In this document: one piece after another, positions 1 through 27,100 of the stretch
How the letters are laid out: each line of letters starts with the position of its first letter
Position numbering within the stretch: the first letter of the stretch is position 1
DNA from: Candidatus Zhuqueibacterota bacterium
Lineage (GTDB): Bacteria; Zhuqueibacterota; Zhuqueibacteria; Oceanimicrobiales; Oceanimicrobiaceae
Reading direction: 5' to 3'
DNA: 64,000 nucleotides
NCBI GenBank assembly: GCA_029262035.1
Contig: JAJDAE010000247.1
Location: 12,517 to 76,516 of the forward strand
Notes under the pieces: generated by a model
Databases searched by the model: none
What the model was told of the DNA's origin: nothing
Seen by the model: only the letters and a program-made list of their open reading frames with translations
Position numbers and translations under genes: made by a program

Positions 1-3000
1 ATGGCATCCGTACGCGTATCGGCGAAATAAGCTCTGATTATACTACAAATTATAGAGTAAAAGAACTTCTAAAAGCGCACGGTGTTAAGTCGACCAGTGA
101 TTTGGCTTTGAACAAAAGTAATGGAACCCTGGTTTGGCAAGAGCGTGGACCGGGCAATGTGGCGGGTAGAACACGAGCCATTTTGGTCGATCCGGCTGAT
201 GCTAATTATGGTACCTGGATTGTTGGCTCCGTCGGCGGTGGTGTCTGGAAAACTACAGATTCCGGCGAGACATGGGCAGAATTAACCATAGATATTCCTA
301 CACTTGCTACAAGTGCCTTAGCCTGGGCGCCTAATTTCCCTAATTATATTTATGTGGGAACCGGTGAAGGATTTGGTAATGTTGATCAGCTTGATGGTTC
401 CGGCATTTGGAAAACCGATGATGCCGGCGTAACCTGGGCTCAGGTTGCCAGCATTGCTACTAACCCTGACTTTGAAAACGTGATGCGTATGGCTGTAGAC
501 CCTGCAGACCCAATGGTACTGGTCGTAGCTGTCAGCCCCGGGTTTAATCAAGGTACAGGAACTTCAGGCGTTTATCGTACCACAGATGGAGGTACTACCT
601 GGACTAAAACATATGAGGGAGGTAACACGTTTCTTGAAGATATGCGTGCCGATCCTTCAGACTTTAACAATCAGTATGCAACTATAAATGGTGTTGGAGT
701 TATTAAGTCAACAGACGGTGGGCAAAACTGGGTTGATTCCAGCGTAGGCATTGGTCCTGTTGGCCGTATGGAATTGGCCATTGCTCCGTCAGACCCGAAT
801 ACGATCTACCTTTCCGCTCAAGGCGGCGGTACCGGTTCTATTTTGTACAGTTCTAATGATGGTGGTGCAACCTGGTTTGGCCATGCAAATGCAGTTGGCA
901 ACGATGTGCATTGGTTAGGTGGCCAGGGTTGGTACGACAATACTATTGCTGTTAATCCCTATGATGCAAGTGACATCTTTGTTGGTGGTGTCCAGCTTTG
1001 GAACATAACTGCGAGTTCCGCAGTGGATACCTCAGATGCTCAAGTTACGGGGGTTGATCTGGAAAATACCCAATCATTTTGGTCTTTTGTAAATTTTGGC
1101 GGCCCATACGCTGGTGGCGGCTTGGATCTCACCAGTGGTTTCTTTGGATCCGCACCAATTGATCCGAGCGAATTTGCCAGTGTTGAAGTAAGATTTGGAC
1201 CCGGAAAAACACAAAAAGCCCACAGATTTTTTAGAGGCGATGGTAGTTATCCGTATCGGGATTATGTAGATGTTCCTTTTGAAGTATGGGACATCGATAA
1301 CAATCAACAACTAATGGTTTCTTTCCGTGATCATGAGGACAATGGGGTCTTTGAATTGGAAGATCGGGCAACGGATCCGGGCGGTATTGACCGTGAATAT
1401 CTATTCCTGCATAACATTCCTTACGTGGCTGTGGAAGATACAAATGTTGCCCAAGCAGGCGGAATGCTTTTTAAAGGAACCTATTCCATGTGGCCTGAAG
1501 CACCCGGAGGTACAGGCCAGCCTGACTTGACCGCTGTGCCGGACGCGATTGTCCGCATTAATTGGGGCACCTTCCTGACAAAAGGCATTGAAACCGCTAA
1601 TGTCACCGATGGTTATGGCCAATTTGGTGGGTTAGACAAAGGCGTTCATGTGGATCATCATAATATCGTTATGGTTAAGACCGATGAAAGCACATCGAGC
1701 TTCAGATTAATAAACGGAAATGATGGTGGCGTTTCTTATTCAGATGATGCCGGTACCACTTTCAGACAAACAGGTGATCAGGATTTTCGTGGTTTTGGCG
1801 GCGCAGAAACTCCCGGATTAAAAGGTTATAATACCACCCAGTTTTATGGCGCAGACAAAATGAACGGCGCTGATCGTTATATTGGTGGCGCGCAGGATAA
1901 TGGTCAGTGGATTTCTGACGATGATCCCGATAAAACCAGTAGTTGGGTGCCTGCTCCAAGCGGTGACGGATTTGAGGCAGTCTGGAACTACCGTGATCCC
2001 GATCTTATGCTTGAATCTTCTCAATTTAACAGTATTTCTCGTTCCACTGATCGCGGCCTGACATGGCAAAATATCGGTGGCTTGATTCCTGGCAATGGGC
2101 CTTTCTTTACAAGACTCGCCAATTCAAAGCAAGATCCTGATCTTGTTTTTGCCATAAGTGACGCCGGTGTGATACGTTCGGATAATTTTGGCGCTTCCTG
2201 GACAGTTACGCCAATGCCTGCCGGTTTTGTTGGAACCAGCTCATTTTCACAAATTGTTATTTCTTTAGCGAATCCACAAATTGTGTGGACTGCGAGAAAT
2301 ATGACTGCTGCAAGCCACCCGTTTGTTTCAACCAATGGTGGTGTTAGTTTTGATACGACCAACATTTTTACCGATGTTACTATGGGTAGGCTCTCAGGTT
2401 TTGATACCCATCCGACTGAAGAGAATACAGCCTTTGCATTATCAGCACTCAAGGGTGCACCAAAGGTAATGAAGACCACAGATTTGGGTCAGACCTGGAC
2501 AGATATTTCAGGTTTTGGCGCCAACGCAATCAGCTCCACTGGATTTCCGGATGTTGCAGTATTCAGCTTGCTGGTTATGCCGAGCGACACCAGCATTATT
2601 TGGGCCGGTACTGAAATCGGTATTTTTGAAAGTACTGATAGCGGTGGTACCTGGGCATTTGCCGATAATGGCTTAGCAGCTGTTTCTGTCTATCAAATGC
2701 TAATTGTAAACGACGAAGTTGTTGTTGCTACTCACGGTCGTGGTATCTGGACTGTTGCAATTCCGGAATTAGACGGCTATGAACCACCAGCAGTAACTTT
2801 AGCCCCAAGATTTGCCAGCCTCAACGGCGGTGGCGGGGGAATCATCGCTGCAAGCATGATTTTACCATCAGCGTATGATTCTTCTTTTGTTTTGATAGAT
2901 GGTGTTAAAACCGTAAGCCTTGGTGCTAATTCAGCAGCGGTAGATTCATCTTTTGATATTGCTGTATCTGTCCCGCAGTTAGACACTGTTAGCGTGGCTT

Positions 3001-3914
3001 TGGCAGCTTATGTTGGCGGCAATGTTTTAATCAATGCCCCAGCTAATGTAGTTGTCTTCCCGCTTGGCGAACCGGTTGGCTCATATGCTGAAAATTTTGA
3101 TACCGGCAGTGAAGCTTTCTTCGTGTTCAGCGGTTTGGATGTTGGCACTCCTGCGGGTTTTGATAATGCAGCAATCCACTCTCCTCATCCATATCCGGAC
3201 GGAGCAAATATGACCGCATTACTTAAAGCACCAATTATAGTCGCTTCAAGTAATGCAACTCTGAAATATGATGATATCGCAATTGTGGAGACCGGCAGCG
3301 GCTCCGGTGTTTTTGGCGATCCGCAATTCTGGGATTTTGCGATTGTTGAAGGCAGTAAGGATAATGGTTCAACCTGGTTGCCACTCGCAGACGGCTATGA
3401 TGCCAGAGCAGATTCTACCTGGTTAGCAGTTCATGATGCTGGAGCTGCCGGCGATTCTTCAATGTATGTATCCCATGAGATTAACCTGTTGGATACTTTT
3501 GCCGCAGATGATGTGATTTTGGTTCGGTTCAGACTTTTTGCCGATACAAACACAAACGGCTGGGGTTGGGCTGTTGACAATATAAATATTCAGGATGGTG
3601 TTGTTTCGGTTGAATCAGGAAGTACGGTACCGACTGTATTCAGCATGTCACAAAATTATCCGAATCCATTTAACCCAACTACGCAAATTAACTACGCTTT
3701 ACCAAAGGACGCTGACGTGACTTTGCAGGTCTTTAATATTGTAGGCCAAAAAGTACGCGACATCTTTGTTGGGCAAGCGCAAAAAACTGGTAGATATACT
3801 ATTGCCTGGAATGGTAGAGACAATAGTGGTATTCAGGTTTCCAGTGGTTTGTATTTTTACAGAATTAAAGCGGGTGACTTTGTGAAGACTCATAAAATGA
3901 CCTTGTTGAAGTAA
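1..3914 (+). CDS. 5'-truncated giant secreted protein with ~10 BNR/Asp-box (SxDxGxTW) repeats and a T9SS C-terminal sorting domain. It is possibly sialidase- or GH74-like, or another beta-propeller glycan-binding protein.
   Basis: Frame 3 is open from nt 3 to the stop at 3914, with no stop upstream of the TTG the ORF track used at 102, so the gene starts outside the window. Repeated motifs TTDSGETW, TDDAGVTW, TTDGGTTW, STDGGQNW, SNDGGATW, STDRGLTW, TTDLGQTW and STDSGGTW are present. The C-terminus NYPNPFNPTTQINYALP...LYFYRIKAGDFVKTHKMTLLK matches the T9SS CTD pattern. Confidence 0.75.
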   Translation, partial: GIRTRIGEISSDYTTNYRVKELLKAHGVKSTSDLALNKSNGTLVWQERGPGNVAGRTRAILVDPADANYGTWIVGSVGGGVWKTTDSGETWAELTIDIPTLATSALAWAPNFPNYIYVGTGEGFGNVDQLDGSGIWKTDDAGVTWAQVASIATNPDFENVMRMAVDPADPMVLVVAVSPGFNQGTGTSGVYRTTDGGTTWTKTYEGGNTFLEDMRADPSDFNNQYATINGVGVIKSTDGGQNWVDSSVGIGPVGRMELAIAPSDPNTIYLSAQGGGTGSILYSSNDGGATWFGHANAVGNDVHWLGGQGWYDNTIAVNPYDASDIFVGGVQLWNITASSAVDTSDAQVTGVDLENTQSFWSFVNFGGPYAGGGLDLTSGFFGSAPIDPSEFASVEVRFGPGKTQKAHRFFRGDGSYPYRDYVDVPFEVWDIDNNQQLMVSFRDHEDNGVFELEDRATDPGGIDREYLFLHNIPYVAVEDTNVAQAGGMLFKGTYSMWPEAPGGTGQPDLTAVPDAIVRINWGTFLTKGIETANVTDGYGQFGGLDKGVHVDHHNIVMVKTDESTSSFRLINGNDGGVSYSDDAGTTFRQTGDQDFRGFGGAETPGLKGYNTTQFYGADKMNGADRYIGGAQDNGQWISDDDPDKTSSWVPAPSGDGFEAVWNYRDPDLMLESSQFNSISRSTDRGLTWQNIGGLIPGNGPFFTRLANSKQDPDLVFAISDAGVIRSDNFGASWTVTPMPAGFVGTSSFSQIVISLANPQIVWTARNMTAASHPFVSTNGGVSFDTTNIFTDVTMGRLSGFDTHPTEENTAFALSALKGAPKVMKTTDLGQTWTDISGFGANAISSTGFPDVAVFSLLVMPSDTSIIWAGTEIGIFESTDSGGTWAFADNGLAAVSVYQMLIVNDEVVVATHGRGIWTVAIPELDGYEPPAVTLAPRFASLNGGGGGIIAASMILPSAYDSSFVLIDGVKTVSLGANSAAVDSSFDIAVSVPQLDTVSVALAAYVGGNVLINAPANVVVFPLGEPVGSYAENFDTGSEAFFVFSGLDVGTPAGFDNAAIHSPHPYPDGANMTALLKAPIIVASSNATLKYDDIAIVETGSGSGVFGDPQFWDFAIVEGSKDNGSTWLPLADGYDARADSTWLAVHDAGAAGDSSMYVSHEINLLDTFAADDVILVRFRLFADTNTNGWGWAVDNINIQDGVVSVESGSTVPTVFSMSQNYPNPFNPTTQINYALPKDADVTLQVFNIVGQKVRDIFVGQAQKTGRYTIAWNGRDNSGIQVSSGLYFYRIKAGDFVKTHKMTLLK

Positions 3915-5146: not shown

Positions 5147-8100
5147 ATGGAAAAAATGTATTTAGTACCGGCACAACGAAATGGCAGTTTTAATTTCGAA
5201 ATGAAAAATTATTTCCCATTTGAGTTTCACATAAGCGGTGAAGCCAGACAAATTTACGATTTTGACCAATCGATTTTTAAGAGCAACGGAAATGTGGTTT
5301 TAGCCGATTTTCAGGCAGCCAGGTTATTTGCCCAAAAAATGAATTCAAAGCGCGATCTTATCAGCAATCCTGAGCAGACGATTAGGGCGGGTGAGGTGAA
5401 TGCCATGGGGCTGATCGATGAGATTCTGCACTATTTGCTTTGGAACTATCGCCAGCAAATAAATAAAAATCTGTTTAAAGATGCCCGGGAATGGCTCACA
5501 AAGCGTGTGAGTTCTGCACAGTTTGAAAAAGCTTTGCTTAAATTTGTAGAAGCTTTTCCGCCGATTGCAGTTCATAAAAAAGAGATATCAGTTGAAGATT
5601 ATTTGACCGGGCAAACGGACGGTGTGTCACATAAGGACGTCGCCCTCGAAGAAATGTTGATGCTGTGGATTGCCAATTTAAACCCGGCATTTTCAAAGTT
5701 TACAGAGCTTTTTGATGATCGTGCTTTACGTGAAAATACGGCCTACAAAAGCATCATGAACAACCTGGCCTCTTTTTTTGAAACGCAACCTAAGTTCGGA
5801 CCTGGCAATTATAATTTGTATAGACTTTTGCGTTTGCCGGCTCTGGAACGACCGCACTCGCTCGAAGACCAATTGCGCTTTCTCACCAGTGCTTTTGGTA
5901 CGCTTCTCAGCAAATTCGACCTGCGTTTGTTGAGCAGCATGGATTTGATTCGTGAGGAAATCAAAGCCATGTTTGCGGGACCTCCGCCAACCGAAGTGAT
6001 GAAGTTCGATTACACAGAATATGAAGCCGAACGTTTCAGTCACGATTTGCACTGGATGCCGGAATTGGTTTTAATCGCCAAAAGTACCTTGGTTTGGCTT
6101 GACCAGCTTTCAAAAAAATATCAACAGTCGATTACCCGCTTAGATCAAATTCCTGATGAGGAAATCGAAACACTTGCACGCTGGGGTTTTACCGGTTTGT
6201 GGTTGATTGGCATCTGGCAGCGCAGCGATGCATCCAAACGGGTGAAGCAAGCCTGCGGCAATCCGGAGGCGGAATCATCAGCTTACTCCTTGTTCGACTA
6301 CGAAATTGCCCATGAATTGGGAGGCTATGACGCGCTGCAAAATTTGAAATCGCGTTGCTGGAAATATGGCGTTCGCCTGGCTTGTGATATGGTGCCCAAT
6401 CACACCGGCATCGATTCAAAATGGATGCGTGATCACCCCGACTGGTTTGTCTCGCTGCCGTACAGCCCGTTCCCTTCCTACACTTTTAATAGTATGAATC
6501 TTTCCCGGGATGAGCGTTACGGTGTTTTCATTGAAGACAAATATTATAATCAGAGTGACGCAGCGGTGGTCTTCAAACGTGAAGATTATTGGAACAATGA
6601 TGTGCGCTATATATATCATGGCAACGACGGCACCAGCATGCCGTGGAATGACACCGCGCAATTAAATTATTTAAACCCCGAAGTCCGGGAAGCCGTGATT
6701 CAAAAAATTATTGATGTCGCGAAAATGTTCCCGGTAATTCGCTTTGATGCAGCGATGACCCTGGCGAAAAAGCACTACCAGCGGCTCTGGTTTCCGGAGC
6801 CGGGTTCCGGCGGTGACATCCCCTCCCGCGCAGATTTTGGTATGACACGTGAAGACTTTAACCGCATTTTCCCGGAGGAGTTTTGGCGGCAGGTCGTTGA
6901 CCGTGTTGCTGTGGAAGTGCCTGAATGTTTGCTGTTGGCTGAGGCTTTCTGGATGATGGAGGGCTATTTTGTCCGCACACTTGGTATGCACCGTGTTTAC
7001 AACAGCGCTTTCATGAATATGCTTAAAAATGAAGAGAACACAAAATATCGGCAGACAATTATTAACACCATTCAATTTAATCCGGAAATCCTGAAACGAT
7101 ATGTCAATTTTATGAATAACCCGGATGAAGATACGGCAATCGAGCAATTTGGCGATAGCGATAAATACTTCGGTGTTTGTGCTGTGCTGGTAACTATGCC
7201 CGGTCTGCCTATGTTCGGGCATGGCCAGGTTGAAGGCTATCGTGAAAAATACGGCATGGAATATCGTAAGGCTTATTGGGACGAACAGCCGAATGAAGGC
7301 CTCATGCAGCGCCATGAGCGGGAAATTTTTCCATTAACTAAAAAGCGTTATTTGTTTGCTGAAGTGGAGAATTTTCTATTCTTCGATTTTGTTTCCGGGG
7401 ACGGTTCTGTAAATGACAATGTGTTTGCTTATTCAAACAGCGCTCGTGGCGAACAGGCTCTGGTAGTTTACAACAATAAATATGAGCGAGCTACCGGTTG
7501 GGTACGGTCTTCCGTTCCTTTCGCTGAGAAAACCGGGAATGGCGATGAAACCCACCAGGTGCAAAAATCACTGCGCCAGGGACTTCGCTTGCCTTATGAA
7601 GACGACAAATATTTGATTTTTCGAGATTTGATTTCCGATCTCGAGTATATCCGCAATTGCAAACAGGTATGCGACGATGGCTTTTATTTCGAGTTAGATG
7701 GCTTCAAATACCAGGTTTTCGCAAATATGTATGAAGTGCAGGAAAACGAGTGGGGGCATTATGGGCAACTGAATGCAAAACTTAATGGCCAAGGCGTGCA
7801 AAGCATTTCTGAGGAAATTAGGGAAATCGCCCACAAACCTTTACACGAGGCATTTCAATTTGTTTATGAGCCGTCTTTTTTTCAGGAATTCCTTTCAGGT
7901 TTTAATGGAGTCGGCAAAGATTCTTTCATTAAAAATTTTGAGGAAAACTATTCTCCTGCACTTGCAGTAGCGCAAAAGTATGCGCAGGGCAAAAATGCAA
8001 TCGAACTTATCTCTGAGTTGGTAAAAGTTAAAATCGGTTCAGCTTCTGGCTTAGCAAAATTTAAATCAAAATTCACCAAGACTGAAACTACAAAATATAA

Positions 8101-8662
8101 AGTGTTAATCGAACGCGTGGAAGCTGCGAGCAAACAGGAAGACTTGATTGCGATCGTTTATTTTTGGTTGATTTTGCATGCGTTGGGTAAATTCGCGGAT
8201 GAAACAAATTTTGAATTTAACAGTGTTACCTTTGCTGATAACTGGCTGCTTACCAAACGCGTCCGTCATTTTTTTGAAAATCATATTTCCAGAGAAGAAT
8301 CTCAGGAAAATACAATTTTAGTAAAAATTCTCATAGAAAACCAGAACATCTTGATTGCAGATGATGTTAGCCCTTCTCAAACACTATCTATTTTATTAAA
8401 CCAGCCGCAGGTTCAACAGGTTCTGAAAGTTAACCATTACGAAGATATTGCCTGGTTTAACAAAGAATCATTTCAAAAACTGGTTGATGCTTTTTTAGCT
8501 ATTTCAATTGTTCAAGTTATTTCAAGTCAATCAAAAAAGAAGGATTTCTTGAAATCAGTCGTTGGGCTTCAAAAAATCCTGAAACAATGGACATCAGCTA
8601 AAGAGAAATCTGAATACCAGGTTGAGAAATTGTTGAATTTTTTAAAGAAAAATACTGAGTAG
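5147..8662 (+). CDS. large (1171 aa) GH13 alpha-amylase-family enzyme. The catalytic core is most similar to GlgE-like maltosyltransferases, with a ~330-aa N-terminal and a ~450-aa C-terminal extension.
   Basis: GH13 region I DMVPNHTG is followed by RDHPDWF (compare GlgE KHPEWF). Region II is VIRFDAAM (nucleophile Asp), region III LLLAEAFW (acid/base Glu) and region IV YVNFMNNPDED. There is no signal peptide. Confidence 0.6.
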   Translation: MEKMYLVPAQRNGSFNFEMKNYFPFEFHISGEARQIYDFDQSIFKSNGNVVLADFQAARLFAQKMNSKRDLISNPEQTIRAGEVNAMGLIDEILHYLLWNYRQQINKNLFKDAREWLTKRVSSAQFEKALLKFVEAFPPIAVHKKEISVEDYLTGQTDGVSHKDVALEEMLMLWIANLNPAFSKFTELFDDRALRENTAYKSIMNNLASFFETQPKFGPGNYNLYRLLRLPALERPHSLEDQLRFLTSAFGTLLSKFDLRLLSSMDLIREEIKAMFAGPPPTEVMKFDYTEYEAERFSHDLHWMPELVLIAKSTLVWLDQLSKKYQQSITRLDQIPDEEIETLARWGFTGLWLIGIWQRSDASKRVKQACGNPEAESSAYSLFDYEIAHELGGYDALQNLKSRCWKYGVRLACDMVPNHTGIDSKWMRDHPDWFVSLPYSPFPSYTFNSMNLSRDERYGVFIEDKYYNQSDAAVVFKREDYWNNDVRYIYHGNDGTSMPWNDTAQLNYLNPEVREAVIQKIIDVAKMFPVIRFDAAMTLAKKHYQRLWFPEPGSGGDIPSRADFGMTREDFNRIFPEEFWRQVVDRVAVEVPECLLLAEAFWMMEGYFVRTLGMHRVYNSAFMNMLKNEENTKYRQTIINTIQFNPEILKRYVNFMNNPDEDTAIEQFGDSDKYFGVCAVLVTMPGLPMFGHGQVEGYREKYGMEYRKAYWDEQPNEGLMQRHEREIFPLTKKRYLFAEVENFLFFDFVSGDGSVNDNVFAYSNSARGEQALVVYNNKYERATGWVRSSVPFAEKTGNGDETHQVQKSLRQGLRLPYEDDKYLIFRDLISDLEYIRNCKQVCDDGFYFELDGFKYQVFANMYEVQENEWGHYGQLNAKLNGQGVQSISEEIREIAHKPLHEAFQFVYEPSFFQEFLSGFNGVGKDSFIKNFEENYSPALAVAQKYAQGKNAIELISELVKVKIGSASGLAKFKSKFTKTETTKYKVLIERVEAASKQEDLIAIVYFWLILHALGKFADETNFEFNSVTFADNWLLTKRVRHFFENHISREESQENTILVKILIENQNILIADDVSPSQTLSILLNQPQVQQVLKVNHYEDIAWFNKESFQKLVDAFLAISIVQVISSQSKKKDFLKSVVGLQKILKQWTSAKEKSEYQVEKLLNFLKKNTE

Positions 8663-9028
8663 AGTCTGAACGAAAACACCGACTTTGTCCTTCTGAGCGC
8701 GAACCCTCAAATGTGGCACTTGAGGCAGAAGATGATGCGCGAAGAATCTCCTGGGAGAAAGATTCTTCACACGGCGGCGGCGATCTTGAAAAGCAACATG
8801 AGAGATTTTGTGTTCAGAATGACGTGGAATTTTTGGTTTACGGTCAATCATTTAGTAGTTAGTCCAATTTTTATGGGCTGTTTGAAATATTTCAGCGATA
8901 GTTTACGCTGAATATCGCTAAATTATAGTTCGTGATAATTCATGGAATTACTGACTTGCGTGACATGTTTTTACAGATATTCAAATCAACATTAATAATG
9001 GCTGTTTAATTCACCCGAAATAAAGAAT

Positions 9029-10126
9029 ATGAAGTTTAGATATTCAGAATGGCAGGAAGGCAAGAGGAAAGGTAAACTTACCTTTGATGAGCTGATGAAG
9101 TTGTTCAATCAGCTTTTACTGCATAGTAATGGCAGCATTGACGAAGCGCTGGCATGGATGACTGAACTTGATAAGGAGTACAATGTTTTTGATGACAAAA
9201 ACGGTTTAGGTTTCGACGACTTTTTGGAGTGGTTAAAAAAAGAAGGCTATATCGAGGAGAATAATGATATTCTGGCACTGAGCCATAAAGGTTCAAAAAG
9301 AATCCGCCAGGATGCCTTAAAAGAGATATTTACTTCGCTGCGTAAGCGTTCCCTCGGTGAGCATGAATCGCCGCACACCGGGCAAGGGATTGAGCGTTTG
9401 AGTGAGACCAAGCCGTATCAATTTGGCGATCAGGCTGCGAACATAGATTTTTCTTCAACCATAAACAATGCCATTCGGCGGGATGGACTTGACAAGTTCA
9501 ATTTGAAGGAAGAAGATTTCGAGGTTTACGAAACAGAGCACATGACCACCTGCGCCACCGTGTTAATGCTGGATATCAGCCACAGTATGATTCTTTATGG
9601 CGAAGATCGTATTACGCCGGCCAAAAAAGTAGCTCTCGCTTTAGCTGAGATGATCTCCACACGCTTCCCGAAAGACAGTTTGGATGTTGTGGTTTTCGGC
9701 GATAAGGCGGTTGAAGTTGATATGGCGGATATTCCGACCATTGCGGTTGGCCCGTATCACACCAACACCAAAGATGCGCTGGACAGGGCGCAAAGAATTC
9801 TCAAAAGAAAGAAAAATGTCAACAAACAGATTTTTATGATAACGGACGGCAAGCCCTCTGCTATTTTCACAAATGGTCGATTGTACAAAAATCCGTATGG
9901 GTTAGATAGAAAAATTGTGAGTCAGACGTTGGGCAGTGCACGTGCCTGCCGCAAGAATAATATTACCGTCACCACCTTTATGATTGCCCGGGATTCCTGG
10001 CTTGTAGATTTCGTCAAAGAATTGACTGAAATTTGCAAAGGACGGGCGTATTATTCTTCTTTAAATAACCTCGGTGAATATATTTTTGTTGATTACATCA
10101 ACAACAGGAAAAAGAGATTTAGGTAG
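9029..10126 (+). CDS. von Willebrand factor type A (VWA) domain protein, CoxE/ChlD-C-terminal-like
   Basis: MIDAS DxSxS motif LMLDISHSM, then ...FMITDGKPSA and a hydrophobic strand pattern typical of VWA. It is located directly upstream of the AAA+ gene. Confidence 0.7.
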   Translation: MKFRYSEWQEGKRKGKLTFDELMKLFNQLLLHSNGSIDEALAWMTELDKEYNVFDDKNGLGFDDFLEWLKKEGYIEENNDILALSHKGSKRIRQDALKEIFTSLRKRSLGEHESPHTGQGIERLSETKPYQFGDQAANIDFSSTINNAIRRDGLDKFNLKEEDFEVYETEHMTTCATVLMLDISHSMILYGEDRITPAKKVALALAEMISTRFPKDSLDVVVFGDKAVEVDMADIPTIAVGPYHTNTKDALDRAQRILKRKKNVNKQIFMITDGKPSAIFTNGRLYKNPYGLDRKIVSQTLGSARACRKNNITVTTFMIARDSWLVDFVKELTEICKGRAYYSSLNNLGEYIFVDYINNRKKRFR

Positions 10127-10186
10127 TTTGCTAACCGCTAATGGACGCGAATAAACGCAAATTTAGTTGGTTAAGAAATTAAGAAT

Positions 10187-10324
10187 ATGCTTAAAATTAT
10201 TTTAACGATGAGTACAGGGCTTGCAACTTTAATTGTATGGTTAATATTCATGCCGAATTCAGTGAGATACAAAGAGGAATTTAAGGAAAGCCAGTACCTT
10301 ATCGAAGCAATTGAACACTTTTAA
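10187..10324 (+). CDS. possible 45-aa single-pass membrane micro-protein in the VWA-AAA spacer
   Basis: ATG ORF MLKIILTMSTGLATLIVWLIFMPNSVRYKEEFKESQYLIEAIEHF has one hydrophobic helix. The same frame stays open after its TAA for 75 more codons, up to the ATGA overlap with the AAA+ gene. Confidence 0.25.
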   Translation: MLKIILTMSTGLATLIVWLIFMPNSVRYKEEFKESQYLIEAIEHF

Positions 10325-10548
10325 AAAACTTTTGATCGTCTACCGGAAGGAGCTGAAGTACGTAACATCTTAAATAAGGATGGTGTTCTTGAGAATGATG
10401 AATGTCCTTGCTATGGCAAGAAGAGTTTAGAATCCTATATTGTCTGGTTTGGAACTTCTTTGGGCGAATCAATTATTTACGATTCCGAAACCACAGAGTG
10501 GAGGTACGTATTTTCTGCCTCTGTCGTTATAAATAGAAAAAGGGTTGT

Positions 10549-12045
10549 ATGAAAAATATAAAAACACTCGGCGACTTAAAAGCCGCAAAATATAGAGTCA
10601 AGTCGGTCAAGCAGGAGATGCGGGATAATCTTATCCAAAAATTGCATGATAAAGAAAAGTTGTTCCCGGGTATTATTGGTTTCGACTCGACGGTCATTCC
10701 TGCGCTTTGCAATGCCATGTTGTCGTATCACGATTTCATTTTACTCGGCTTGCGCGGACAGGCGAAGACTAGAATTATCCGCTCATTGCCAACTTTGTTG
10801 GATGAATTTATTCCTATCATAAAAGGTAGTGAAATCAATGATAATCCGTTTAGTCCGGTCAGCAAATATTGTGCTGATCTTGTGGCTGAGCATGGCGAGG
10901 ATGTTGAAATCGAATGGCTTCACCGGGATGAACGCTTTGGGGAAAAGCTGGCAACCCCTGACGTGACTATATCCGATTTGATCGGTGACATCGATCCCAT
11001 TAAAGCCGCTTCCCAACGCTTGCACTATGCCCATGAAGGCGTCATCCATTTTGGTATTATACCTCGTAGTAATCGCGGCATTTTTGCCATCAACGAACTA
11101 CCTGATTTGCAGCCGCGAATTCAAGTCGGCTTGTTCAATATTATGCAAGAAAAGGATATCCAAATTCGCGGCTTTCCCATCCGAATTCCTCTGGATGTTG
11201 TGATTGTTTATACTGCAAATCCGGAAGATTACACAAACCGCGGCAGTATTATTACCCCGCTGAAAGATAGAATTGGTTCACAAATTATCACACATTATCC
11301 GCGCACCATTGAAGAGGGCATGGCCATAACCCGCCAGGAATCCAAAGCTGAGCGGGATAGCGGCAGGACTGTGATTATTCCTGAATTCTTCAGGGAGATC
11401 ATCGAGCAAGTCGCTTTCGAAGCGCGTAAAAGTGAATTTGTAGATCACAAGTCCGGAGTCAGCGTACGCATGACAGTAACCAGCATGGAGAATCTGATCA
11501 GCAATGCTGAACGTCGTGCGATTATTCATGATGAAAAGGAAATTGTTCCACGTATTTGCGATCTGTATGCAATGTTGCCTTCAATCACAGGTAAAGTTGA
11601 ACTGGTTTATGAGGGTGAGCAGGAGGGTGAATTAAATGTAAGTCGTGCACTTATCGGCAAAGCAATTAAGACACTTTTTGCAAAACTGTTTTCTGATCCT
11701 TTGGTGGGCGCAAAAAAGGGAGACAAGACTTTTGAGGAGATTGTTGGCTGGTTTAAAGACAATAAATCCATTGATACTGCCGATGATATGTCGAAGAAAG
11801 ATTATTTTTCCGAACTCGCCCAAGTGAGCGGTCTCCGGAAACTCGCCGCCGATAAGATGAAAATTTCTGCCGGTGAAAACGAAGCTATTCTCGGTGCAGC
11901 CATGGAATTTGTATTAGATGGTCTGCATCAAAACTCAATGTTGAGTAAAGATATATTGGATTCAAAGATATCCTATAGCGATATGTTCAACAGCATGTTC
12001 AGCTCTCTCAAGCCGGGAGAAGATTTTTTTGATGAAGAAACTTAA
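10549..12045 (+). CDS. AAA+ ATPase of the MoxR/ChlI (helix-2-insert) clade
   Basis: Walker A is GLRGQAKT, the AK[ST] variant seen in MoxR/RavA. The sensor region VYTANPEDYTNRGSIITPLKDRIG matches the NPEE...LLDRF pattern. The Walker B region reads IFAINE, i.e. NE rather than DE. There is a ~150-aa C-terminal extension. Confidence 0.65.
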   Translation: MKNIKTLGDLKAAKYRVKSVKQEMRDNLIQKLHDKEKLFPGIIGFDSTVIPALCNAMLSYHDFILLGLRGQAKTRIIRSLPTLLDEFIPIIKGSEINDNPFSPVSKYCADLVAEHGEDVEIEWLHRDERFGEKLATPDVTISDLIGDIDPIKAASQRLHYAHEGVIHFGIIPRSNRGIFAINELPDLQPRIQVGLFNIMQEKDIQIRGFPIRIPLDVVIVYTANPEDYTNRGSIITPLKDRIGSQIITHYPRTIEEGMAITRQESKAERDSGRTVIIPEFFREIIEQVAFEARKSEFVDHKSGVSVRMTVTSMENLISNAERRAIIHDEKEIVPRICDLYAMLPSITGKVELVYEGEQEGELNVSRALIGKAIKTLFAKLFSDPLVGAKKGDKTFEEIVGWFKDNKSIDTADDMSKKDYFSELAQVSGLRKLAADKMKISAGENEAILGAAMEFVLDGLHQNSMLSKDILDSKISYSDMFNSMFSSLKPGEDFFDEET

Positions 12046-12051
12046 TGATAA

Positions 12052-13617
12052 ATGAAAAGCACCAGCCTATCACATGTAAGAAATTTTGAACTTGAAGAGC
12101 AGATACGTAAGCTCAATAAAATTGGTATCGCACTTTCGAGCGAACAAGACTTAAACCGTTTGTTGGAAGTTATTGTTAGGGAAGCCAGGGCTTTTACGCA
12201 TGCTGATGGCGGAAGCCTGTATATCCGCGAAAAAGATCGCCTGAATTTTACGGTAGCTCAAACCGAATCTCTCGATAAGCGCGGCGAAAAACGCAAACCT
12301 TTCACCTCTTTTTATTTGCCACTCTCAAAGGAAAGTATTGCCGGCTATGTAGCCTTGACGGGAGAAATTCTCAACATCAAAGATGTTTATGAGGTTCCCG
12401 ACGAGGTTGAATACAAAATCAATAAGGTGTTCGACAATCAAAATAATTATCGATCCCAATCCATGCTGGTGGTGCCTATGCGTGATACGGATGGTGAAAT
12501 TATTGGCGTGTTGCAACTGATAAATTCGTTGAGCGATGACGGAATCGTTTCGGTTTTTAAAACCGAGTATGAAGCGTTGGTACATTCTCTGGCATCACAA
12601 GCGGCAGTGGCCATTCGAAACGTTAAACTGCTGAATGAAATTAAAAGTCTATTTAAATCTCTGGTGCGCTATTCCGCAAAAGCAATTGATGCGCGAAGCC
12701 CACATACTGCCGGTCATTCCGGGAGGGTAGCGAAATTTTCGGTGCGTATTGCCGAGGCTATTAATGATGAATCCAACGGTGGCCTGAAGGATGTTAATTT
12801 TTCGCCAGTGGAGATAGAAGAACTGCGCATGGCCGGCTGGTTGCACGATATTGGTAAAATCGGCGTGCGTGAAAGTGTACTGGAAAAAGCCAACAAGCTT
12901 AATATTGATCAAATGAACACAGTTTATGAGCGTTTTGAGTCTATTAAGCAAAGCATTGAAAAAAAGTACTTGCAGGCTGAACTTAATTTATTGAGAAATG
13001 GACAGACTGCGAACCCGGGCGAAGTCAAAGGCCGCAAAGCACAATGCGATAAAGAAATCGCTCAAGTTGAGCAGGTTTTTGAGTTTCTTCAAAGAATTAA
13101 TGTCCCGGGCTATCTGGTTGAGGATGATTTGAAGCTCCTGAAATGTATCCACCGGCGTACGTTTGTTGACAGGCTTGGCAATGAGAAAAAATATCTTCTA
13201 CCTGAAGAATATGAGCATCTGGCGATTATCAAAGGTAACCTCACCAAAGGCGAATATCGTGAAATTCAAGCGCATGTTAGTCATACTCTTGACATTTTAG
13301 AAAAAATGCCATTCACCAAAGAGATGGCTAAGATACCCGACTATGCCGCCGCACACCACGAACTGATGGATGGCAGTGGCTACCCACGCGGATTGCGAGG
13401 TGATGAAATCCCTGTTCAGGCTCGCATAATGTGCATCGCTGATATTTTTGATGCGCTCAATTCGCCGGATCGACCTTACAAAAAAGCCACACCGCTTGAA
13501 CGTACTTTGCAGATTTTGCAGGAAGATGCCGAGGCTGGCAAGCTTGATCCACACATCGTAGATATGTTCATCCGCAGGAAATTGTATCAGCGCCCAATTA
13601 GTGAGGACGAGGATTAA
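12052..13617 (+). CDS. GAF-domain HD-GYP phosphodiesterase (predicted c-di-GMP phosphodiesterase)
   Basis: The HD motif is WLHDIGKIGV and the HD-GYP signature is HHELMDGSGYPRGL. The N-terminal ~180 aa are GAF-like. It starts 6 nt after the AAA+ gene. Confidence 0.75.
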   Translation: MKSTSLSHVRNFELEEQIRKLNKIGIALSSEQDLNRLLEVIVREARAFTHADGGSLYIREKDRLNFTVAQTESLDKRGEKRKPFTSFYLPLSKESIAGYVALTGEILNIKDVYEVPDEVEYKINKVFDNQNNYRSQSMLVVPMRDTDGEIIGVLQLINSLSDDGIVSVFKTEYEALVHSLASQAAVAIRNVKLLNEIKSLFKSLVRYSAKAIDARSPHTAGHSGRVAKFSVRIAEAINDESNGGLKDVNFSPVEIEELRMAGWLHDIGKIGVRESVLEKANKLNIDQMNTVYERFESIKQSIEKKYLQAELNLLRNGQTANPGEVKGRKAQCDKEIAQVEQVFEFLQRINVPGYLVEDDLKLLKCIHRRTFVDRLGNEKKYLLPEEYEHLAIIKGNLTKGEYREIQAHVSHTLDILEKMPFTKEMAKIPDYAAAHHELMDGSGYPRGLRGDEIPVQARIMCIADIFDALNSPDRPYKKATPLERTLQILQEDAEAGKLDPHIVDMFIRRKLYQRPISEDED

Positions 13618-13728
13618 CTCATTCCTACTAAAATTTTCAAAAGAATAAGTTTTTATACCTTTTTTTATTTCTTGATATTTTGATGATGAAATGTATATTT
13701 AAACTATACATAAATTTCGGAGATTGAT

Positions 13729-13971
13729 ATGAAGGCCAGCGTTGTTGATCTAAGGTACAAAATGAATGATATCCTCAAGGCGTTAGAAAGAAACGAGGAA
13801 GTAACGGTTCTTTATCATGGTAAAGTAAAAGGCGTTATTGTTCCAGCAAAAAGAGAAGATAATAAAAGAATTACGGATCACCCTTTTTTTGGTATGTTAG
13901 AAGCGGAGACACAAAAATCAGTGCTGGACACTCTGGACAATTTAAGAAAGCCTAGATATGATGATTTTTGA
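13729..13971 (+). CDS. Phd/YefM-family antitoxin
   Basis: 80 aa. The N-terminus SVVDLRYKMNDILKALERNEEVTVLYHGKVKGVIVP is typical of Phd/YefM. It overlaps the downstream PIN gene by 14 nt. Confidence 0.7.
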   Translation: MKASVVDLRYKMNDILKALERNEEVTVLYHGKVKGVIVPAKREDNKRITDHPFFGMLEAETQKSVLDTLDNLRKPRYDDF

Positions 13972-14338
13972 TACGGATATTTTTATTTGGGTACAGCGAG
14001 GTAATAAAAAAGCCGCAAGACTAATGGAAAAATCAGCGAGCAGGAATCTTTCTATTCAAACGTATATGGAGCTTTTGCAATGCGCTCAGAACAAAACTCA
14101 ACACAAGTATGTAAAAGAGTTTCTTGCGTCGTATGGATTTATCGTTCTTCCACTCACTGAAAATATTGGTCATCGAGCATCGATTTATATTGAAGAGTAC
14201 ACACTCGGTTCAGGCTTAAGGTCTGGCGACGCGCTAATTGCAGCCACAGCAGTGGAAAATAATATGAGTCTTGTATCAAGTAATGCCCGGCATTTTAAAG
14301 CGATCAAAGATTTGGATTTTAAGATTTTCAAACCATAA
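13958..14338 (+). CDS. vapC: PIN-domain ribonuclease toxin (VapC-like)
   Basis: MMIFDTDIFIW supplies the first acidic residue. ...SGDALIAATAVENNMSLVSSNARHF is a classic PIN core. Size is 126 aa. Confidence 0.8.
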   Translation: MMIFDTDIFIWVQRGNKKAARLMEKSASRNLSIQTYMELLQCAQNKTQHKYVKEFLASYGFIVLPLTENIGHRASIYIEEYTLGSGLRSGDALIAATAVENNMSLVSSNARHFKAIKDLDFKIFKP

Positions 14339-14355
14339 TCAACTAGTGTCAATCA

Positions 14356-16155
14356 ATGCCAACAATCATCCCACAACATAAAATAGAAGATATCCGCGAA
14401 GCGACCAATGTCGTCGAATTGGTGCAAGGCTATGTTACGCTCAAGCAAAAGGGGCAGAACCACTTTGGCCTGTGCCCCTTTCACCATGAGAAAAGCCCAT
14501 CGTTTAGTGTCAGCGACGCCAAGCAGATTTTTCACTGTTTTGGCTGTGGTGCGGGTGGCAATGTGTTTACTTTCTTAATGCGCTATGAAGGCATTGATTT
14601 TCCTGAAGCGGTACGTTTCCTGGCACAAAAAGCCGGCATCGAACTTGAGCTTGAGGAGAGCGATGATGATATCCAGCCCAAGCAGAATGAAGCTTTGTTT
14701 CACATCAACGAGTTTGCCGCTAAATGGTATCACCAAATCTTAATGAGTGAAGAAGGTGTCAAGGCCAGAGACTACTTGCACGAGCGTGGTTTTACCCCGG
14801 ATGAAATCAAAAAGTACGGCCTTGGATATGCGCCCTCAGCGTGGGATAAGTTAGTGAAGCATACGCAACAAACCACAAACAGCCTGGAGGCGCTCACGAA
14901 CGCCGGTCTTGTAAGCCAAAAAAAGGAAGGCGGCCATCTGGACAGATTTCGTGATCGGATCATGTTTCCGATTTTGAACTTGTCGGGAAGAGTTGTGGCT
15001 TTTGGCGGCCGAATTATTGTTGCTGATAAAAAGACAGCCAAATACATCAATACTTCAGAAACCAGCATCTACGAAAAAGGCAAGCTCCTTTATGGTCTTT
15101 TCCAAAACCGTGATCAGATTCGCCAGCAGAAATTTGCAATCCTGGTTGAAGGCTACATGGATTTACTGAGTCTGGCTTCGGCAGGAATTCATAATGTGAT
15201 CGCGAGTTCAGGAACTTCGCTTACAGAGGAACAGGCACGGCTGCTCAAACGCTACACCAGCAAAACCACAGTCCTGTACGACAGCGACCTGGCCGGAAAA
15301 ACTGCGGCTGCCCGTGGCGCGGATATTTTGACCGCGAATGGTCTTGAAGCGTCGATTGCATCCTTACCTTCCGGCCATGACCCGGATAGTTATGTGCGTG
15401 AATTCGGTGCTGATGCCCTGACAAAAGAACTCAACGCCGCAAAGTCACTGTTCGATTACAAACTCGATCGACTGGCGAATATGAGCGCAGCAGATCAGAC
15501 TGAGGGAATTCGTTCCGTGCTTTCATCTCTTGCCCAGGTTAAAGATAAAATTGCCAGAAATATTTTACTGAGCAAAATTTCCGTGCAAATTGGCATCAGC
15601 GAAAATATTCTTTGGGCCGAGCTGGAGGTGTTGCTGAATAAACAGGTCAAAGACTCTATTCGTCTTTCCGGTATAGGGGAGAGGCTGTCCGATTTATCCA
15701 AAGTTAAAAAACAGACCAGGTTAGAAAAAGCAGTGGAAGATTTAATTCGGATATTAATTAGCGATTGGAGCACGGCAGAGTTTATTTTTAATAATATTAA
15801 TTTTGAGGATATAAACGATTTCTCAAAAACCAAAATTTTGGAGTACTACAAGAACAAATTCAAAAGCGGTGCAATTATTTTGGATGATGATGACAGCATC
15901 GCGCATTATTTTCATGATGTTGAGTTGTCCGAATTTATTGTGCGTGAATTAAATATGAAAAAGGAAGACCTTGACTACAGGCGATGGGCAAAAGAATGTC
16001 TTCAAACCATTCACGAAACTAAAATTAAAGAACAATTGCAGCTTCTAAAAGAGGATATCAAACAGTCTACCGGCGACAAGACCAAGATCAAAGAATTATT
16101 ACAAGCCTGCACGGCGCTTGAACAAAAACGCAAAGAATTTGTGGTTCATGAATGA
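14356..16155 (+). CDS. dnaG: DNA primase DnaG
   Basis: CHC2 zinc finger CPFHHEKSPSFSVS...HCFGCGAGGNVFTFLM is present. The TOPRIM region EGYMDLLSL...LYDSDLAGKTAA follows. Length is 599 aa. Confidence 0.9.
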   Translation: MPTIIPQHKIEDIREATNVVELVQGYVTLKQKGQNHFGLCPFHHEKSPSFSVSDAKQIFHCFGCGAGGNVFTFLMRYEGIDFPEAVRFLAQKAGIELELEESDDDIQPKQNEALFHINEFAAKWYHQILMSEEGVKARDYLHERGFTPDEIKKYGLGYAPSAWDKLVKHTQQTTNSLEALTNAGLVSQKKEGGHLDRFRDRIMFPILNLSGRVVAFGGRIIVADKKTAKYINTSETSIYEKGKLLYGLFQNRDQIRQQKFAILVEGYMDLLSLASAGIHNVIASSGTSLTEEQARLLKRYTSKTTVLYDSDLAGKTAAARGADILTANGLEASIASLPSGHDPDSYVREFGADALTKELNAAKSLFDYKLDRLANMSAADQTEGIRSVLSSLAQVKDKIARNILLSKISVQIGISENILWAELEVLLNKQVKDSIRLSGIGERLSDLSKVKKQTRLEKAVEDLIRILISDWSTAEFIFNNINFEDINDFSKTKILEYYKNKFKSGAIILDDDDSIAHYFHDVELSEFIVRELNMKKEDLDYRRWAKECLQTIHETKIKEQLQLLKEDIKQSTGDKTKIKELLQACTALEQKRKEFVVHE

Positions 16156-24162: not shown

Positions 24163-27100
24163 ATGCAGTATTTTCGATATCTTGTTTTTACTATTGGTTT
24201 ATTTTGCACGCTTCAATCAACGATGGCGCAATCACCCAGGCCCAGATTTTATAAACCACAATTTTCTGATAGCAATTTATTGGGAATTAACAACAATCTG
24301 CTGGAAAAATCTAACTCTGGCTTTACGATTAATACGAATACAATTGGTAGTCCGGATACGCTCAAGCTGCTGGTTATTCGCGTAGATTTTCAAACTGACA
24401 ACAATACGTTAACTACCGGGAATGGTAAATTCCAATTTGCCATTGATACTGAAAAAACGATAGATGTACCACCACATAACCGTCCCTATTTTGAAGCACA
24501 ACTTTTGGCTCTGAGTAATTATTATAAGAAGGTCTCAAGAGGAAATCTTATTCTTGAGGCGGATGTTTTTCCTGCTGCAGATACAGCCGGCTACACAGTT
24601 TTCAATCAAATGAGTTACTATTCGCCGGCAGGTAATGATGAGTTGCTAGACACCCGGCTCGCTGAATTTTTTCAGGAAAGCTTTCAGATAGCAGATTTGG
24701 CGGACAATATCGACTTTTCAAATTACGATAGTTTTATTATTTTTCATGCAGGAGTGGGATCAGATTTCGCCCTGGATTTCGATAGCACACCACAAGATAT
24801 TCCGTCGGTATTTTTAAATTTTAATGAATTGAAGAATGAGTTGGGAAATAGTGAGCCCAACTATGCGGGTATAGCTGTGAATAACGGTTCCTTCCATATT
24901 CGGGATGGCATAATTTTGCCTGAAACTCAAAGCCAGGATCAATTTGAGATTGGCATGCTGGGTACGATGGCTCTTATGTTTGGGAATCAGTTGGGGTTGC
25001 CAATCTTGTTTAACCCGGATAATGGCCGTTCAGGAATAGGCGTTTTTGGATTGATGGATCAAGGCTCCGGGAATTTTTTCGGAATGGTTCCCGCTGAACC
25101 CTGTGCCTGGTCAAAAATTTTTCTTGGCTGGGAAACTCCCATCGTAGTAAAAAACGGAGATGCTCTTCCGGTTGCGACCTCTCTTGCAAAAAATGTAAGC
25201 CAGATTTACAAAATTCCAATCAATGCCAAAGAATATTTTTTAATTGAAAATCGAAGCCGCGATTTTAATGGAGACAACTTTGCAATTGGCTTTGATGCAA
25301 AAGGGACAAAGGTTGAATTTGTGTGGGATGACCGCGGACAAATTCTGCAAGCGCAAGAACAAATTGGCGTGATTACCTCGGTGAGTGAATATGATTTTGG
25401 TTTGCCTGGTTCTGGTATTTTAATATGGCATATCGATGAAAACATAATAGGAGCGAACTTCGCCCAAAATCGCGTCAATGCTGATCCCGGTCATCGCGGG
25501 GTAGATTTAGAAGAGGCAGACGGCGCACAGGATCTCGGTCAATTTTATGGCTTTCTGAGCGCAGGCTTTGGCGCTGAAAACGGTGTAATTGAAGATATGT
25601 TTTGGGGTTCAAATGAAATTAACCTGCTTGTAAATCGTAACTCGGATGCTGTTGTTTTCTCACCTGAGACTCTGCCCAATAGTTCGGCTAATAACGGCTC
25701 GAATTCTTACATTAGAATTTTTGATTTTAGCGAGCCCGATTCTATCATGTCTTTTAGTGTGGAAAATACGATACTTCGGCCAGGCTTTCCACAAATTACA
25801 GCTGAGCCAGGTACAAGCATAAATGCCCCGGTTGCCGCTGATCTAAATAATGACGGGGTATCGGAGATTATATCTACTTCAAGTAATTCTACAGAAATTT
25901 ACGTTTGGAATGCAGACGGTACGAAATTTATACCTAATGATGAAATGTTCAATGTTATTGGTTTAAATGGTGTCACAGAATCCTACGAAAAAGCCCTGTT
26001 TGCAACCCCTCCAGGCGAAAAAATCTTTTCTCCGGCAATTGCAACCAGTGAGTCCGATACAATTGTTGTGGTAACGACAGATCGGTCGGTTGCCTTTTAT
26101 CAGCCTGAGGATGCAGATTCAAATGGAAGAGCAGATGAAATATATGTTTACGAAAGCCAGGTTGAAATTACAACTGCGCCACTCGTTTACAGTAATACCG
26201 GCAGTATATTTGAAGTAGTCTTTGGGAATGCAGATGGGGGAGTTATTCTGATTGACAGCGATAGTGTGGTCACCCCACTAATTGTTGCTCAGGGTGGCGG
26301 TGCCATTTCCGGAATTGCACGAAATATAAATTTTGACTTAGCCTACACAACAATATCTGGAGAAGTTGGTCTAATCGGGCAAAATAGAAGTTTGATTTGG
26401 CAGCGTCAAACTAATTCAAATATTTCTAATTCCCCGGTCATTGCAGATTTGAATCGGGATGGCAATGTTGATTTTATTTTAGTATCAGATTCCGGTGAGC
26501 TTTTCGCGTTTACTCAAAATGGCGATAACTTGGAAGGCCTGCCTACATCTTTTCGTGTTGAGAACCCATCGGCAATCGCTGTGAGTGACATTGATGGAGA
26601 TGGTTTTCTAGATGTTGTTTTTACCGGAGACAATCAGCTTTTTGCATTTAACCACATTGGCTCTTTAAAAAACAATTTTCCTGTACAGATTAGTCGGGCT
26701 GAAGAAGTCGGTTTAGGCGCACCGGTCTTGGTTGATTTAACCTCCGATGGAATTCCTGAAATTGTAACCGGCACCTCAGATAACCGGGTGATTGCTTATT
26801 CTGGCTCCGGTATGATAGTCGACGGTTTCCCGGTTTCTCCTGGTGGCAAAGTCAACAGTGCGCCCTATATAGCCGATCTTGAAGATGATGGAGATGTAGA
26901 AATTGTGGCTATTGCTGAGGATGGCTTTATTTATGTCTGGGATTTTGCAAGTTCGTATAATGCTGATGCTTCTCCGTGGCCTGGTCTGTTTGGCGGCTTA
27001 GGGCACCTCAATTTTAATGATGAGTTTAATCAACCGCAACAGCCCTCAACAAATTCTGTAATGGCTAAAAATTTAGTTTACAATTACCCAAATCCAACTG

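Follow-up and report, generated by a model that had tools for sequence, protein, structure and literature searches.

A stretch of 64,000 nucleotides (nt) from Candidatus Zhuqueibacterota bacterium (contig JAJDAE010000247.1), hereafter the window, carries on its + strand three consecutive genes that, according to the first-pass annotation, form an apparent operon: a gene for a von Willebrand factor A-type (VWA) protein with an adhesion site dependent on a metal ion (MIDAS; 365 amino acids (aa), positions 9029–10126; Pfam VWA_2, E=4.9e-9), one for a putative ChlI/BchI-like AAA+ ATPase (498 aa, 10549–12045; assigned by profile searches, an AlphaFold2 (AF2) model and more than 8000 clusters of homologues) and one for a predicted GAF-HD-GYP cyclic-dinucleotide phosphodiesterase (521 aa, 12052–13617; HD_5 with E=6e-35, GAF with 1.5e-16, and also Pfam HD). 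In that annotation, the phosphodiesterase was the only candidate client of the AAA+/VWA pair encoded in cis, and the locus thus raises the question of whether this pair acts on the turnover of cyclic diguanylate (c-di-GMP) or merely lies next to an enzyme of this type. The open reading frames (ORFs) and domains are confirmed, as is the gap of only 6 nt between the last two genes (the stop codon of the ATPase gene ends at 12045, and the HD-GYP gene starts with the ATG at 12052). The three ORFs are real genes rather than chance ORFs because thousands of homologues exist for each of them, with identities of 88–92% for the best non-identical ones. The explanation that we favor, with a probability of about 0.6, is that the locus combines two independent units, an AAA+/VWA module and an HD-GYP phosphodiesterase, that are secondarily co-transcribed here. 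The proposed c-di-GMP coupling probably amounts to conserved gene order and not to a common function because the module occurs without HD-GYP everywhere except in one bacterial lineage.

The AAA+/VWA pair across phyla

The distribution of the pair in other phyla was sampled with a family-alignment scan using one genome per species, from which the best 80 loci among the matches listed were taken; this sample includes no genomes of candidate division KSB1. The 80 loci come mainly from Bacteroidota, Ignavibacteria, Rhodothermales, Acidobacteriota, Planctomycetota, Zixibacteria and Eisenbacteria, and their ATPases are 51–63% identical to that of the window, apart from one truncated match at 66%. 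Of the 73 informative cases, 59 have a VWA gene in the same locus (upstream of the ATPase gene in 43 and downstream in 16), mostly at a distance of no more than 150 nt, and the paired ATPases are about 470–505 aa long across phyla. The pairing of the AAA+ and VWA genes that was initially noticed in a single locus thus recurs widely.

The third gene does not. A GAF or HD-GYP homologue (E<1e-5) is found within 8 kb in none of the 80 loci, and among the 78 same-strand genes scanned with Pfam at the flanks of these loci, there is no GGDEF, EAL, PilZ or HD-GYP domain; thus, the assignment of the phosphodiesterase as a client encoded in cis fails outside the lineage of the window. No other third gene recurs among the 78 flanking genes either, the commonest family being TMEM260-like (9/78). 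In contrast to the MoxR pairs, which usually adjoin the genes of their clients, the pair of the type found in the window has no constant neighbor. These comparisons show that the AAA+ and VWA genes form a self-contained, highly conserved and widespread two-gene module of the Rv0959 type, which is uncharacterized. Given that this pair has no fixed neighbor, the gene for its client most probably lies elsewhere in the genome.

The triad and dnaG in the KSB1-like lineage

In the lineage of the window, the order VWA–AAA+–GAF-HD-GYP is present in all 10 loci of the sample, so that the gene order described from one genome is kept throughout. These loci are the window itself and the homologue-bearing loci L002, L003, L086, L087, L097, L098, L099, L100 and L103; L001, an independent assembly with a copy identical to the window block, is counted with the window. 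In every lineage locus that reaches far enough, dnaG lies downstream of the triad, followed in five of them by an NYN-domain gene, and the genes upstream of the block vary, encoding amylase-like, MTHFR, Rce1-like or G8-domain proteins. Identity to the window proteins is 65–75% for AAA+, 62–83% for VWA and 59–64% for HD-GYP, compared with just 38–52% for DnaG. Because the order of the triad is kept while DnaG has diverged to this extent and the upstream genes have changed, the VWA–AAA+–HD-GYP–dnaG block is old within the KSB1-like lineage, where both units together with dnaG make up a stable syntenic block. The adjacency to dnaG, a gene unrelated to the module, is conserved as well as the adjacency to the AAA+ gene. 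Outside the lineage, homologues of the phosphodiesterase at 52–54% identity (L101, a metagenome-assembled genome of Nitrospinae, and L102) and at 36–39% identity (L088–L095) have neither AAA+/VWA genes nor dnaG nearby.

The distance between the AAA+ and HD-GYP genes differs widely among the ten loci. It is 6 nt in the window, 11 nt in L002, 65 nt in L103, 71 nt in L087, 238 nt in L003, 335 nt in L099, 379 nt in L098, 387 nt in L097, 544 nt in L100 and 764 nt in L086, where the spacer includes an inserted toxin-antitoxin-like gene. The 6-nt spacing is therefore an exception within the lineage, with seven of the ten loci in the range of 65–544 nt. In six of the ten (L097, L098, L099, L100, L003 and L087), the spacer contains a promoter-like motif, CTTGAC or CTTGCA followed, after 17–19 nt, by TAnnTT(T)G, located 0–130 nt downstream of the ATPase stop codon. 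This motif resembles both the sigma-70 consensus and the Bacteroidetes-type -33/-7 promoter. In L097 (spacer at 6507–6893), L098 (6507–6885), L099 (6573–6907), L100 (6510–7053) and L003 (7501–7738), leaders of about 100–500 nt separate the motif from the HD-GYP start. Some of these leaders are GC-rich and contain segments that recur and form hairpins (L097) or hairpins resembling terminators (L098); Rfam yields no match for them, and an unannotated small RNA or regulatory leader could lie within them.

Toxin-antitoxin genes interrupt the block at differing positions. At the VWA/AAA+ joint, there are PIN and HicB-like genes in L097 (4049–4970) and a HicB-like gene in L098 (4810–5004); at the AAA+/HD-GYP joint, a PIN-like gene in L086 (2888–3651); and at the HD-GYP/dnaG joint, a Phd/PIN module in the window (13729–14338). 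A MazEF module also occupies a block spacer in L004 (4748–5331). Every joint of the block thus bears such an insert in one genome or another, and the block spacers seem to be preferred landing sites for toxin-antitoxin modules. Because the gaps vary, six loci contain the spacer motif and the inserts occur at differing joints, the ancestral state looks like a set of neighboring genes with separate promoters, the tight packing in the window being derived. In the sub-lineage of the window, the AAA+/HD-GYP spacer would have shrunk to 6 nt, and therefore the phosphodiesterase is probably now co-transcribed with the module.

The phosphodiesterase itself is a clear member of its family. Its HD_5 (PF13487) score is 120.9 bits compared with a cut-off of 27.2, and the sequence contains the HD motif at residue 265, HHELMDGSGYP at 435 and IADIFDAL at 462. 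The best matches in the PDB are PmGH from Persephonella marina (4mcw, E=4e-39) and V-cGAP3 (5z7c, 1.2e-33), and the GAF domain is similar to those of CyaB2 and PDE5 that bind cyclic nucleotides (E=1e-13 to 1e-16). PmGH, which is an active enzyme, and the window protein have the GAF plus HD-GYP architecture in common, and their HD, HHExxDGxGYP and DxFDAL motifs align, although the window protein has about 110 extra residues (about 289–394) between the HD and GYP halves that PmGH lacks. Furthermore, a His apparently takes the position of E185 of PmGH, which makes the number of metals in the active center uncertain. Given that V-cGAP3, the second-best solved relative, is specific for 3'3'-cyclic GMP-AMP (3'3'-cGAMP), the substrate may be c-di-GMP or 3'3'-cGAMP. 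On the straightforward reading of these similarities, the protein is an active, GAF-regulated, PmGH-like cyclic-dinucleotide phosphodiesterase that would hydrolyze c-di-GMP or a related cyclic dinucleotide under the control of its own GAF sensor. Across the lineage, it is more conserved than the primase DnaG, which is unusual for a signaling enzyme.

The alternative that survives best, albeit an unlikely one, is a link restricted to the lineage, whereby the AAA+/VWA module of KSB1-like bacteria has the GAF-HD-GYP protein as its client and loads or exchanges its Fe/Mn center or gates its activity. Several observations speak for such a link or weigh against two independent units. Synteny as deep as that of the triad is often functional, and the triad is kept despite the divergence of DnaG and regardless of which gene lies upstream. 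By longest contigs of equal size, 34 of the top 120 AAA+ clusters can be matched to one of the top 120 HD-GYP clusters. The gaps are short in the window and in L002, and no spacer-type promoter motif is found in the window, which, together with the 6-nt gap, argues for co-expression; the conservation of the phosphodiesterase above that of DnaG likewise speaks for the link. HD-GYP enzymes contain a bi- or trinuclear metal center, a type of site that is loaded by AAA+/VWA systems, and PmGH, the closest solved relative, carries a metal center. NorQD, like the chelatases, is a machine for metal insertion (PMC13036017). The Asn in the Walker B motif of the ATPase (see below) could yield a ring that binds ATP yet hydrolyzes it slowly. 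Finally, the placement of the client elsewhere in the genome is a default rather than a finding.

What stands against the lineage link is, above all, that it is absent in 80 of 80 loci from other phyla, though the AAA+ and VWA proteins there are 51–63% identical to those of the window, and that the HD-GYP homologues outside the lineage stand alone. Within the lineage, the AAA+ and HD-GYP genes of most members are separated by a long spacer containing a promoter-like motif, inserted toxin-antitoxin genes are tolerated between them, and the unrelated dnaG is an equally constant neighbor. Moreover, the high cross-phylum conservation of the module implies that those phyla also have its client in common. 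On balance, we favor two independent units. The coupling of the pair to c-di-GMP turnover proposed in the first-pass annotation retains the synteny within the lineage and is unsupported beyond it.

The ATPase, its VWA partner and the chelatase label

The family of the ATPase is not captured by the available domain models. All Pfam matches are sub-threshold, namely AAA_3 with 20.1 bits (cut-off 27), AAA_5 with 19.4 (22) and Sigma54_activat with 17.5 (20.2), and the match to AAA_3 (PF07726) spans residues 136–228 only. NCBIfam matches to BchD, BchI and cobaltochelatase reach 22–31 bits compared with cut-offs of 467–779 (25.5 bits for TIGR02030, cut-off 466.95, and 31.2 bits for TIGR02031, cut-off 499.55). 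A PDB search with a profile of the family built from 22 diverse members identifies ChlI (8osf, E=4.4e-15), BchI (1g8p, 5.9e-13) and archaeal LonB (1.4e-12), followed by weaker matches to sigma-54 activators, MCM and ComM (1e-5 to 1e-2); no MoxR, RavA, CbbQ or NorQ chain is retrieved at E<=0.01.

An AF2 model of the ATPase (predicted local distance difference test (pLDDT) 86, predicted TM-score 0.86) consists of an AAA+ core followed by about 170 aa that form a C-terminal helical domain. A Foldseek search started with this model finds MoxR CHU_0153 (2r44) as the top match with E=2.6e-8, and also BchI, LonB, MCM, NorQ and PspF, all of which fit about equally well, with target-normalized TM-scores of about 0.2–0.55. 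The model thus places the ATPase in the superclade with the helix-2 insert and pre-sensor-1 hairpin, as originally suggested, and by itself the predicted fold does not discriminate MoxR from ChlI. The same applies to the presence of a VWA partner, which, like this fold, is common to MoxR and ChlI/BchI.

Four specific identities were considered and rejected: MoxR, with AAA_3 below its cut-off and no MoxR chain among the PDB matches; an orthologue of the magnesium chelatase, given scores far under the cut-offs of TIGR02030 and TIGR02031; a sigma-54 activator (bacterial enhancer-binding protein, PF00158), given the sub-threshold score and the absence of a GAFTGA-like motif in the ATPase; and ComM/YifB, with no match to PF01078 (Mg_chelatase, YifB/ComM) at E<=0.01 and a profile match to ComM (8rxd) of only E=0.0018 across 57 residues. 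Accordingly, of the initial description of the protein as a member of the MoxR/ChlI clade, the ChlI part stands and the MoxR part does not, and the protein groups with orthologues of neither the magnesium chelatase nor ComM. The profile comparisons indicate a distinct ChlI/BchI-like family, with ChlI/BchI and archaeal LonB as the nearest relatives.

The homologues of this ATPase comprise more than 8000 clusters at 90% identity, of which the best 120 listed are 62–89% identical to it, and a library clustered at 50% identity contains 702 representatives of the family at E<=1e-30. The organisms named include candidate division KSB1, Calditrichota, Ignavibacteriota and Bacteroidota. In databases, these proteins are labeled "magnesium chelatase" or "sigma 54-interacting transcriptional regulator"; judged by the scores given above, both labels are routine mis-annotations.

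The motifs reported in the first-pass annotation, namely the Walker A sequence GLRGQAKT, NPED...LKDRIG and the DxSxS signature of the MIDAS, are all present, and their conservation in the ATPase was counted in 88 homologues from the loci and 22 diverse representatives. In the Walker A motif (10747–10770, + strand), G67, G70 and K73 are invariant, and an Ala replaces the usual second Gly; position 72 is Ala in 86 of the 88 loci, and of the 22 diverse representatives, 15 have Ala and 7 have Gly, so that Ala72 is typical of the family. The Walker B region (AINELPD, 11086–11106, + strand), which aligns with the VDE motif of ChlI, contains N182-E183 in place of D-E. This deviation, from which a regulatory or slow ATPase had been suggested, is not peculiar to the window: N-E is found in 88/88 loci, and among the representatives residue 182 is Asn in 20/22 and Asp in 2/22. 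Sensor 1 (TANPED, N224) and the arginine-finger segment (LKDRIG, R241), both within 11212–11277 on the + strand, align with NPEE...LLDRFG of ChlI/BchI; N224 and R241 are kept in 88/88 loci, and R241 in 22/22 representatives. With R307 as sensor 2, the residues K73, E183, N224, R241 and R307 are essentially invariant, the Walker A Lys, the Walker B Glu, the sensors and the arginine finger being kept in all 88 loci. Because the Walker B Asn is family-wide and the Walker B Glu, sensor 1, the arginine finger and sensor 2 are kept alongside it, it is an old, selected trait of the family and not a decay of the window gene. In an insert after Walker A (alignment columns ~100–125, window residues 93–110), the family members P0035, P0061, P0110 and P0082 contain three Cys residues (GCEINDNPxxPVCKxC), which are Ser/Ser/Cys in the window protein; this segment may be a metal-binding site that was lost in the sub-lineage of the window.

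The VWA protein of the window and all 120 of its homologues listed carry precomputed matches to PF27098 (Rv0959_3rd) and PF13519 (VWA_2); in the case of the window, the match to PF27098 comes from the exact sequence in L001 and was not reported by the local Pfam scan. Rv0959 itself is much longer than the 365-aa protein of the window. The MIDAS motif, D182-I-S184-H-S186 (9572–9586, + strand), is completed by T272 and D273; the D, S, S and D residues are invariant in the 66 partner proteins from the loci, and the T is present in 65 of the 66. An AF2 model that was generated using database homologues (pLDDT 77.6) shows at the N-terminus a helical domain resembling a winged helix, then a disordered linker (residues 103–125) and a VWA domain from which a beta-hairpin, AIFTNGRLYK (residues 278–287, 9860–9889, + strand; strands 278–281 and 284–287), projects. 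In the hairpin region, G283, N288, G291, L292 and D293 are invariant. Foldseek matches of this model are generic VWA folds, including the VWA domain of NorD in NorQ complexes and the MIDAS domain of Rea1/MDN1.

The logic of the pair is that of NorQ/NorD, CbbQ/CbbO and RavA/ViaA, in which a ring ATPase of the superclade (the ring being presumed for the window protein) is combined with a VWA/MIDAS adaptor. In NorD, an N-terminal domain is followed by a disordered linker and then by a VWA domain from which a hairpin protrudes, a layout that the window protein matches; this finger of NorD enters the NorQ pore, and the client is bound at the MIDAS site (PMC9976466, PMC13036017). By this likeness to NorD (PMC13036017), the hairpin of the window protein is a candidate for a finger that binds the pore. 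On the model of BchI/BchD, CobS/CobT and NorQ/NorD, we infer that the ATPase would form a hexameric ring and that the VWA protein would dock onto it, possibly via the conserved beta-hairpin. The MIDAS site would then grip an acidic residue of a client protein, supposedly one encoded elsewhere in the genome, and ATP hydrolysis would remodel this client, e.g., by loading a metal or cofactor.

The next alternative takes the annotation at its word and holds that the two proteins serve as the I/D motor in a chelatase for magnesium or cobalt, an enzyme that inserts the metal into a tetrapyrrole. BchI and ChlI are indeed the best sequence matches and the closest solved relatives of the ATPase, with the NPE(D/E) sensor-1 and L(K/L)DR(I/F)G arginine-finger signatures in common, and their partner BchD/ChlD (and CobT) likewise carries a MIDAS VWA domain; weak NCBIfam matches to BchD/ChlD, BchI/ChlI and a putative cobaltochelatase, along with the label of the family, are in line with this idea. 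Nevertheless, it is very improbable. The scores of 25–31 bits compare with cut-offs of 467–779, the ATPase differs from BchI/ChlI in its Walker B motif and in the extra C-terminal domain of about 170 aa, and the VWA partner, judging by its length, its Pfam domains and the AF2 model, lacks the AAA+ half of BchD/ChlD. In addition, no member of the CobN/ChlH family is detected among the scanned large ORFs of the window or the 78 same-strand neighbors at other loci, and the family is present in many non-photosynthetic phyla.

The same label is attached to the Rv0958/Rv0959 pair of Mycobacterium tuberculosis (with the orthologues MSMEG_5512 and Mmar_4541), a "possible magnesium chelatase" and a VWA protein that resemble the window pair in the two-gene arrangement, the PF27098 domain of the VWA protein and the labels of the ATPase (PMC7092591). 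Going by the name of the Pfam family and by the annotation cited in that paper, on which the connection of the window ATPase to Rv0958 rests, the mycobacterial pair appears to belong to the same AAA+/VWA family. MSMEG_5512 (the Rv0958 orthologue) has been pulled down with RNA polymerase, without association with DNA (PMC7092591), and is present in the ClpC1 interactome (PMC10433963); in Mycobacterium marinum, a screen for B12 resistance yielded a transposon insertion 49 bp upstream of the orthologue (PMC11237697). The "magnesium chelatase" label is accepted at face value in one paper (PMC10774309), and no functional study of Rv0958/Rv0959, MSMEG_5512 or COG4867/COG1239 was found in the literature searched.

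Surroundings of the block and significance

Between the VWA and AAA+ genes of the window, there is a gap of 422 nt (10127–10548) that was not mentioned in the first-pass annotation. Most of it is taken up by a lineage-specific insert (10187–10552, + strand), a single frame of 45 codons, an in-frame TAA (10322–10324) and 75 further codons, the terminal TGA of which overlaps the ATG of the AAA+ gene (ATGA). The N-terminal part of 45 codons is hydrophobic. The insert is identical in the independent assembly L001 and missing from the relative L002, where the VWA and AAA+ genes are 32 nt apart; a Pfam scan gives no match, and no homologue is present among 103 loci. Possible interpretations are a gene that was inserted and has decayed, a pair of small ORFs, or a product of read-through. 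Because no terminator-like site is found on the + strand in the VWA/AAA+ gap, co-transcription of all three genes is plausible. A weak terminator-like hairpin is located within the 3' end of the AAA+ gene (12004–12020). No Bacteroidetes-type promoter (TTG-N17-21-TAnnTTnG) is detected in the intergenic regions of the window or in the 3' end of the AAA+ gene, and a generic sigma-70 scan of the window gives 15 sites compared with 13.9 expected, i.e., not above background. Rfam searches reveal no riboswitch or leader RNA in positions 8000–15000 of the window (E<=0.1) or in the loci of six relatives (gathering score), where the sole match is a tRNA after dnaG in L086.

Upstream of the VWA gene, the window encodes a 1171-aa protein (5147–8662) with a single match, an alpha-amylase catalytic domain at residues 342–702. 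This gene was rejected as a conserved partner, given that, among the relatives, only L002 shares it (56% identity); in several loci of Chitinophagaceae, the VWA gene is preceded by genes for proteins of about 1000–1200 aa that are not homologous to it. Elsewhere in the window (102–3914, 24163–27339, 47969–52111 and 58545–61061), there are genes for large predicted secreted proteins with C-terminal FlgD_ig or Por_Secre_tail domains, which are type IX secretion sorting signals; the same proteins bear FG-GAP, Sortilin or ASH repeats. Such proteins would fit an organism of the FCB group (KSB1-like).

That the module is a conflict or anti-phage AAA+/VWA system, with the phosphodiesterase as its nucleotide-signal component, is highly improbable: AAA+/VWA pairs do occur in some conflict systems, and toxin-antitoxin genes cluster about the block in several genomes, but PADLOC gives no match for any of the three proteins, the toxin-antitoxin genes are inserts at varying positions rather than fixed parts of the block, and the pair is conserved across phyla, in stable contexts beside housekeeping genes such as dnaG, whereas defense genes are patchy and fast-evolving.

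The significance of the locus thus lies primarily in the AAA+/VWA family, which is very large (more than 8000 clusters at 90% identity) and unusually conserved, its members from different phyla being about 50–60% identical. The HD-GYP gene is the only recurrent neighbor found, and in one lineage only, so that it provides a weak but testable lead to the client. It is distinctly unlikely that the KSB1-like lineage recruited the ChlI-like AAA+/VWA module to mature or gate the GAF-HD-GYP protein, e.g., by ATP-driven loading of Fe/Mn. If true, however, such recruitment would tie second-messenger turnover to an AAA+ metallochaperone and would identify the first client of a module conserved in many phyla, including mycobacteria.

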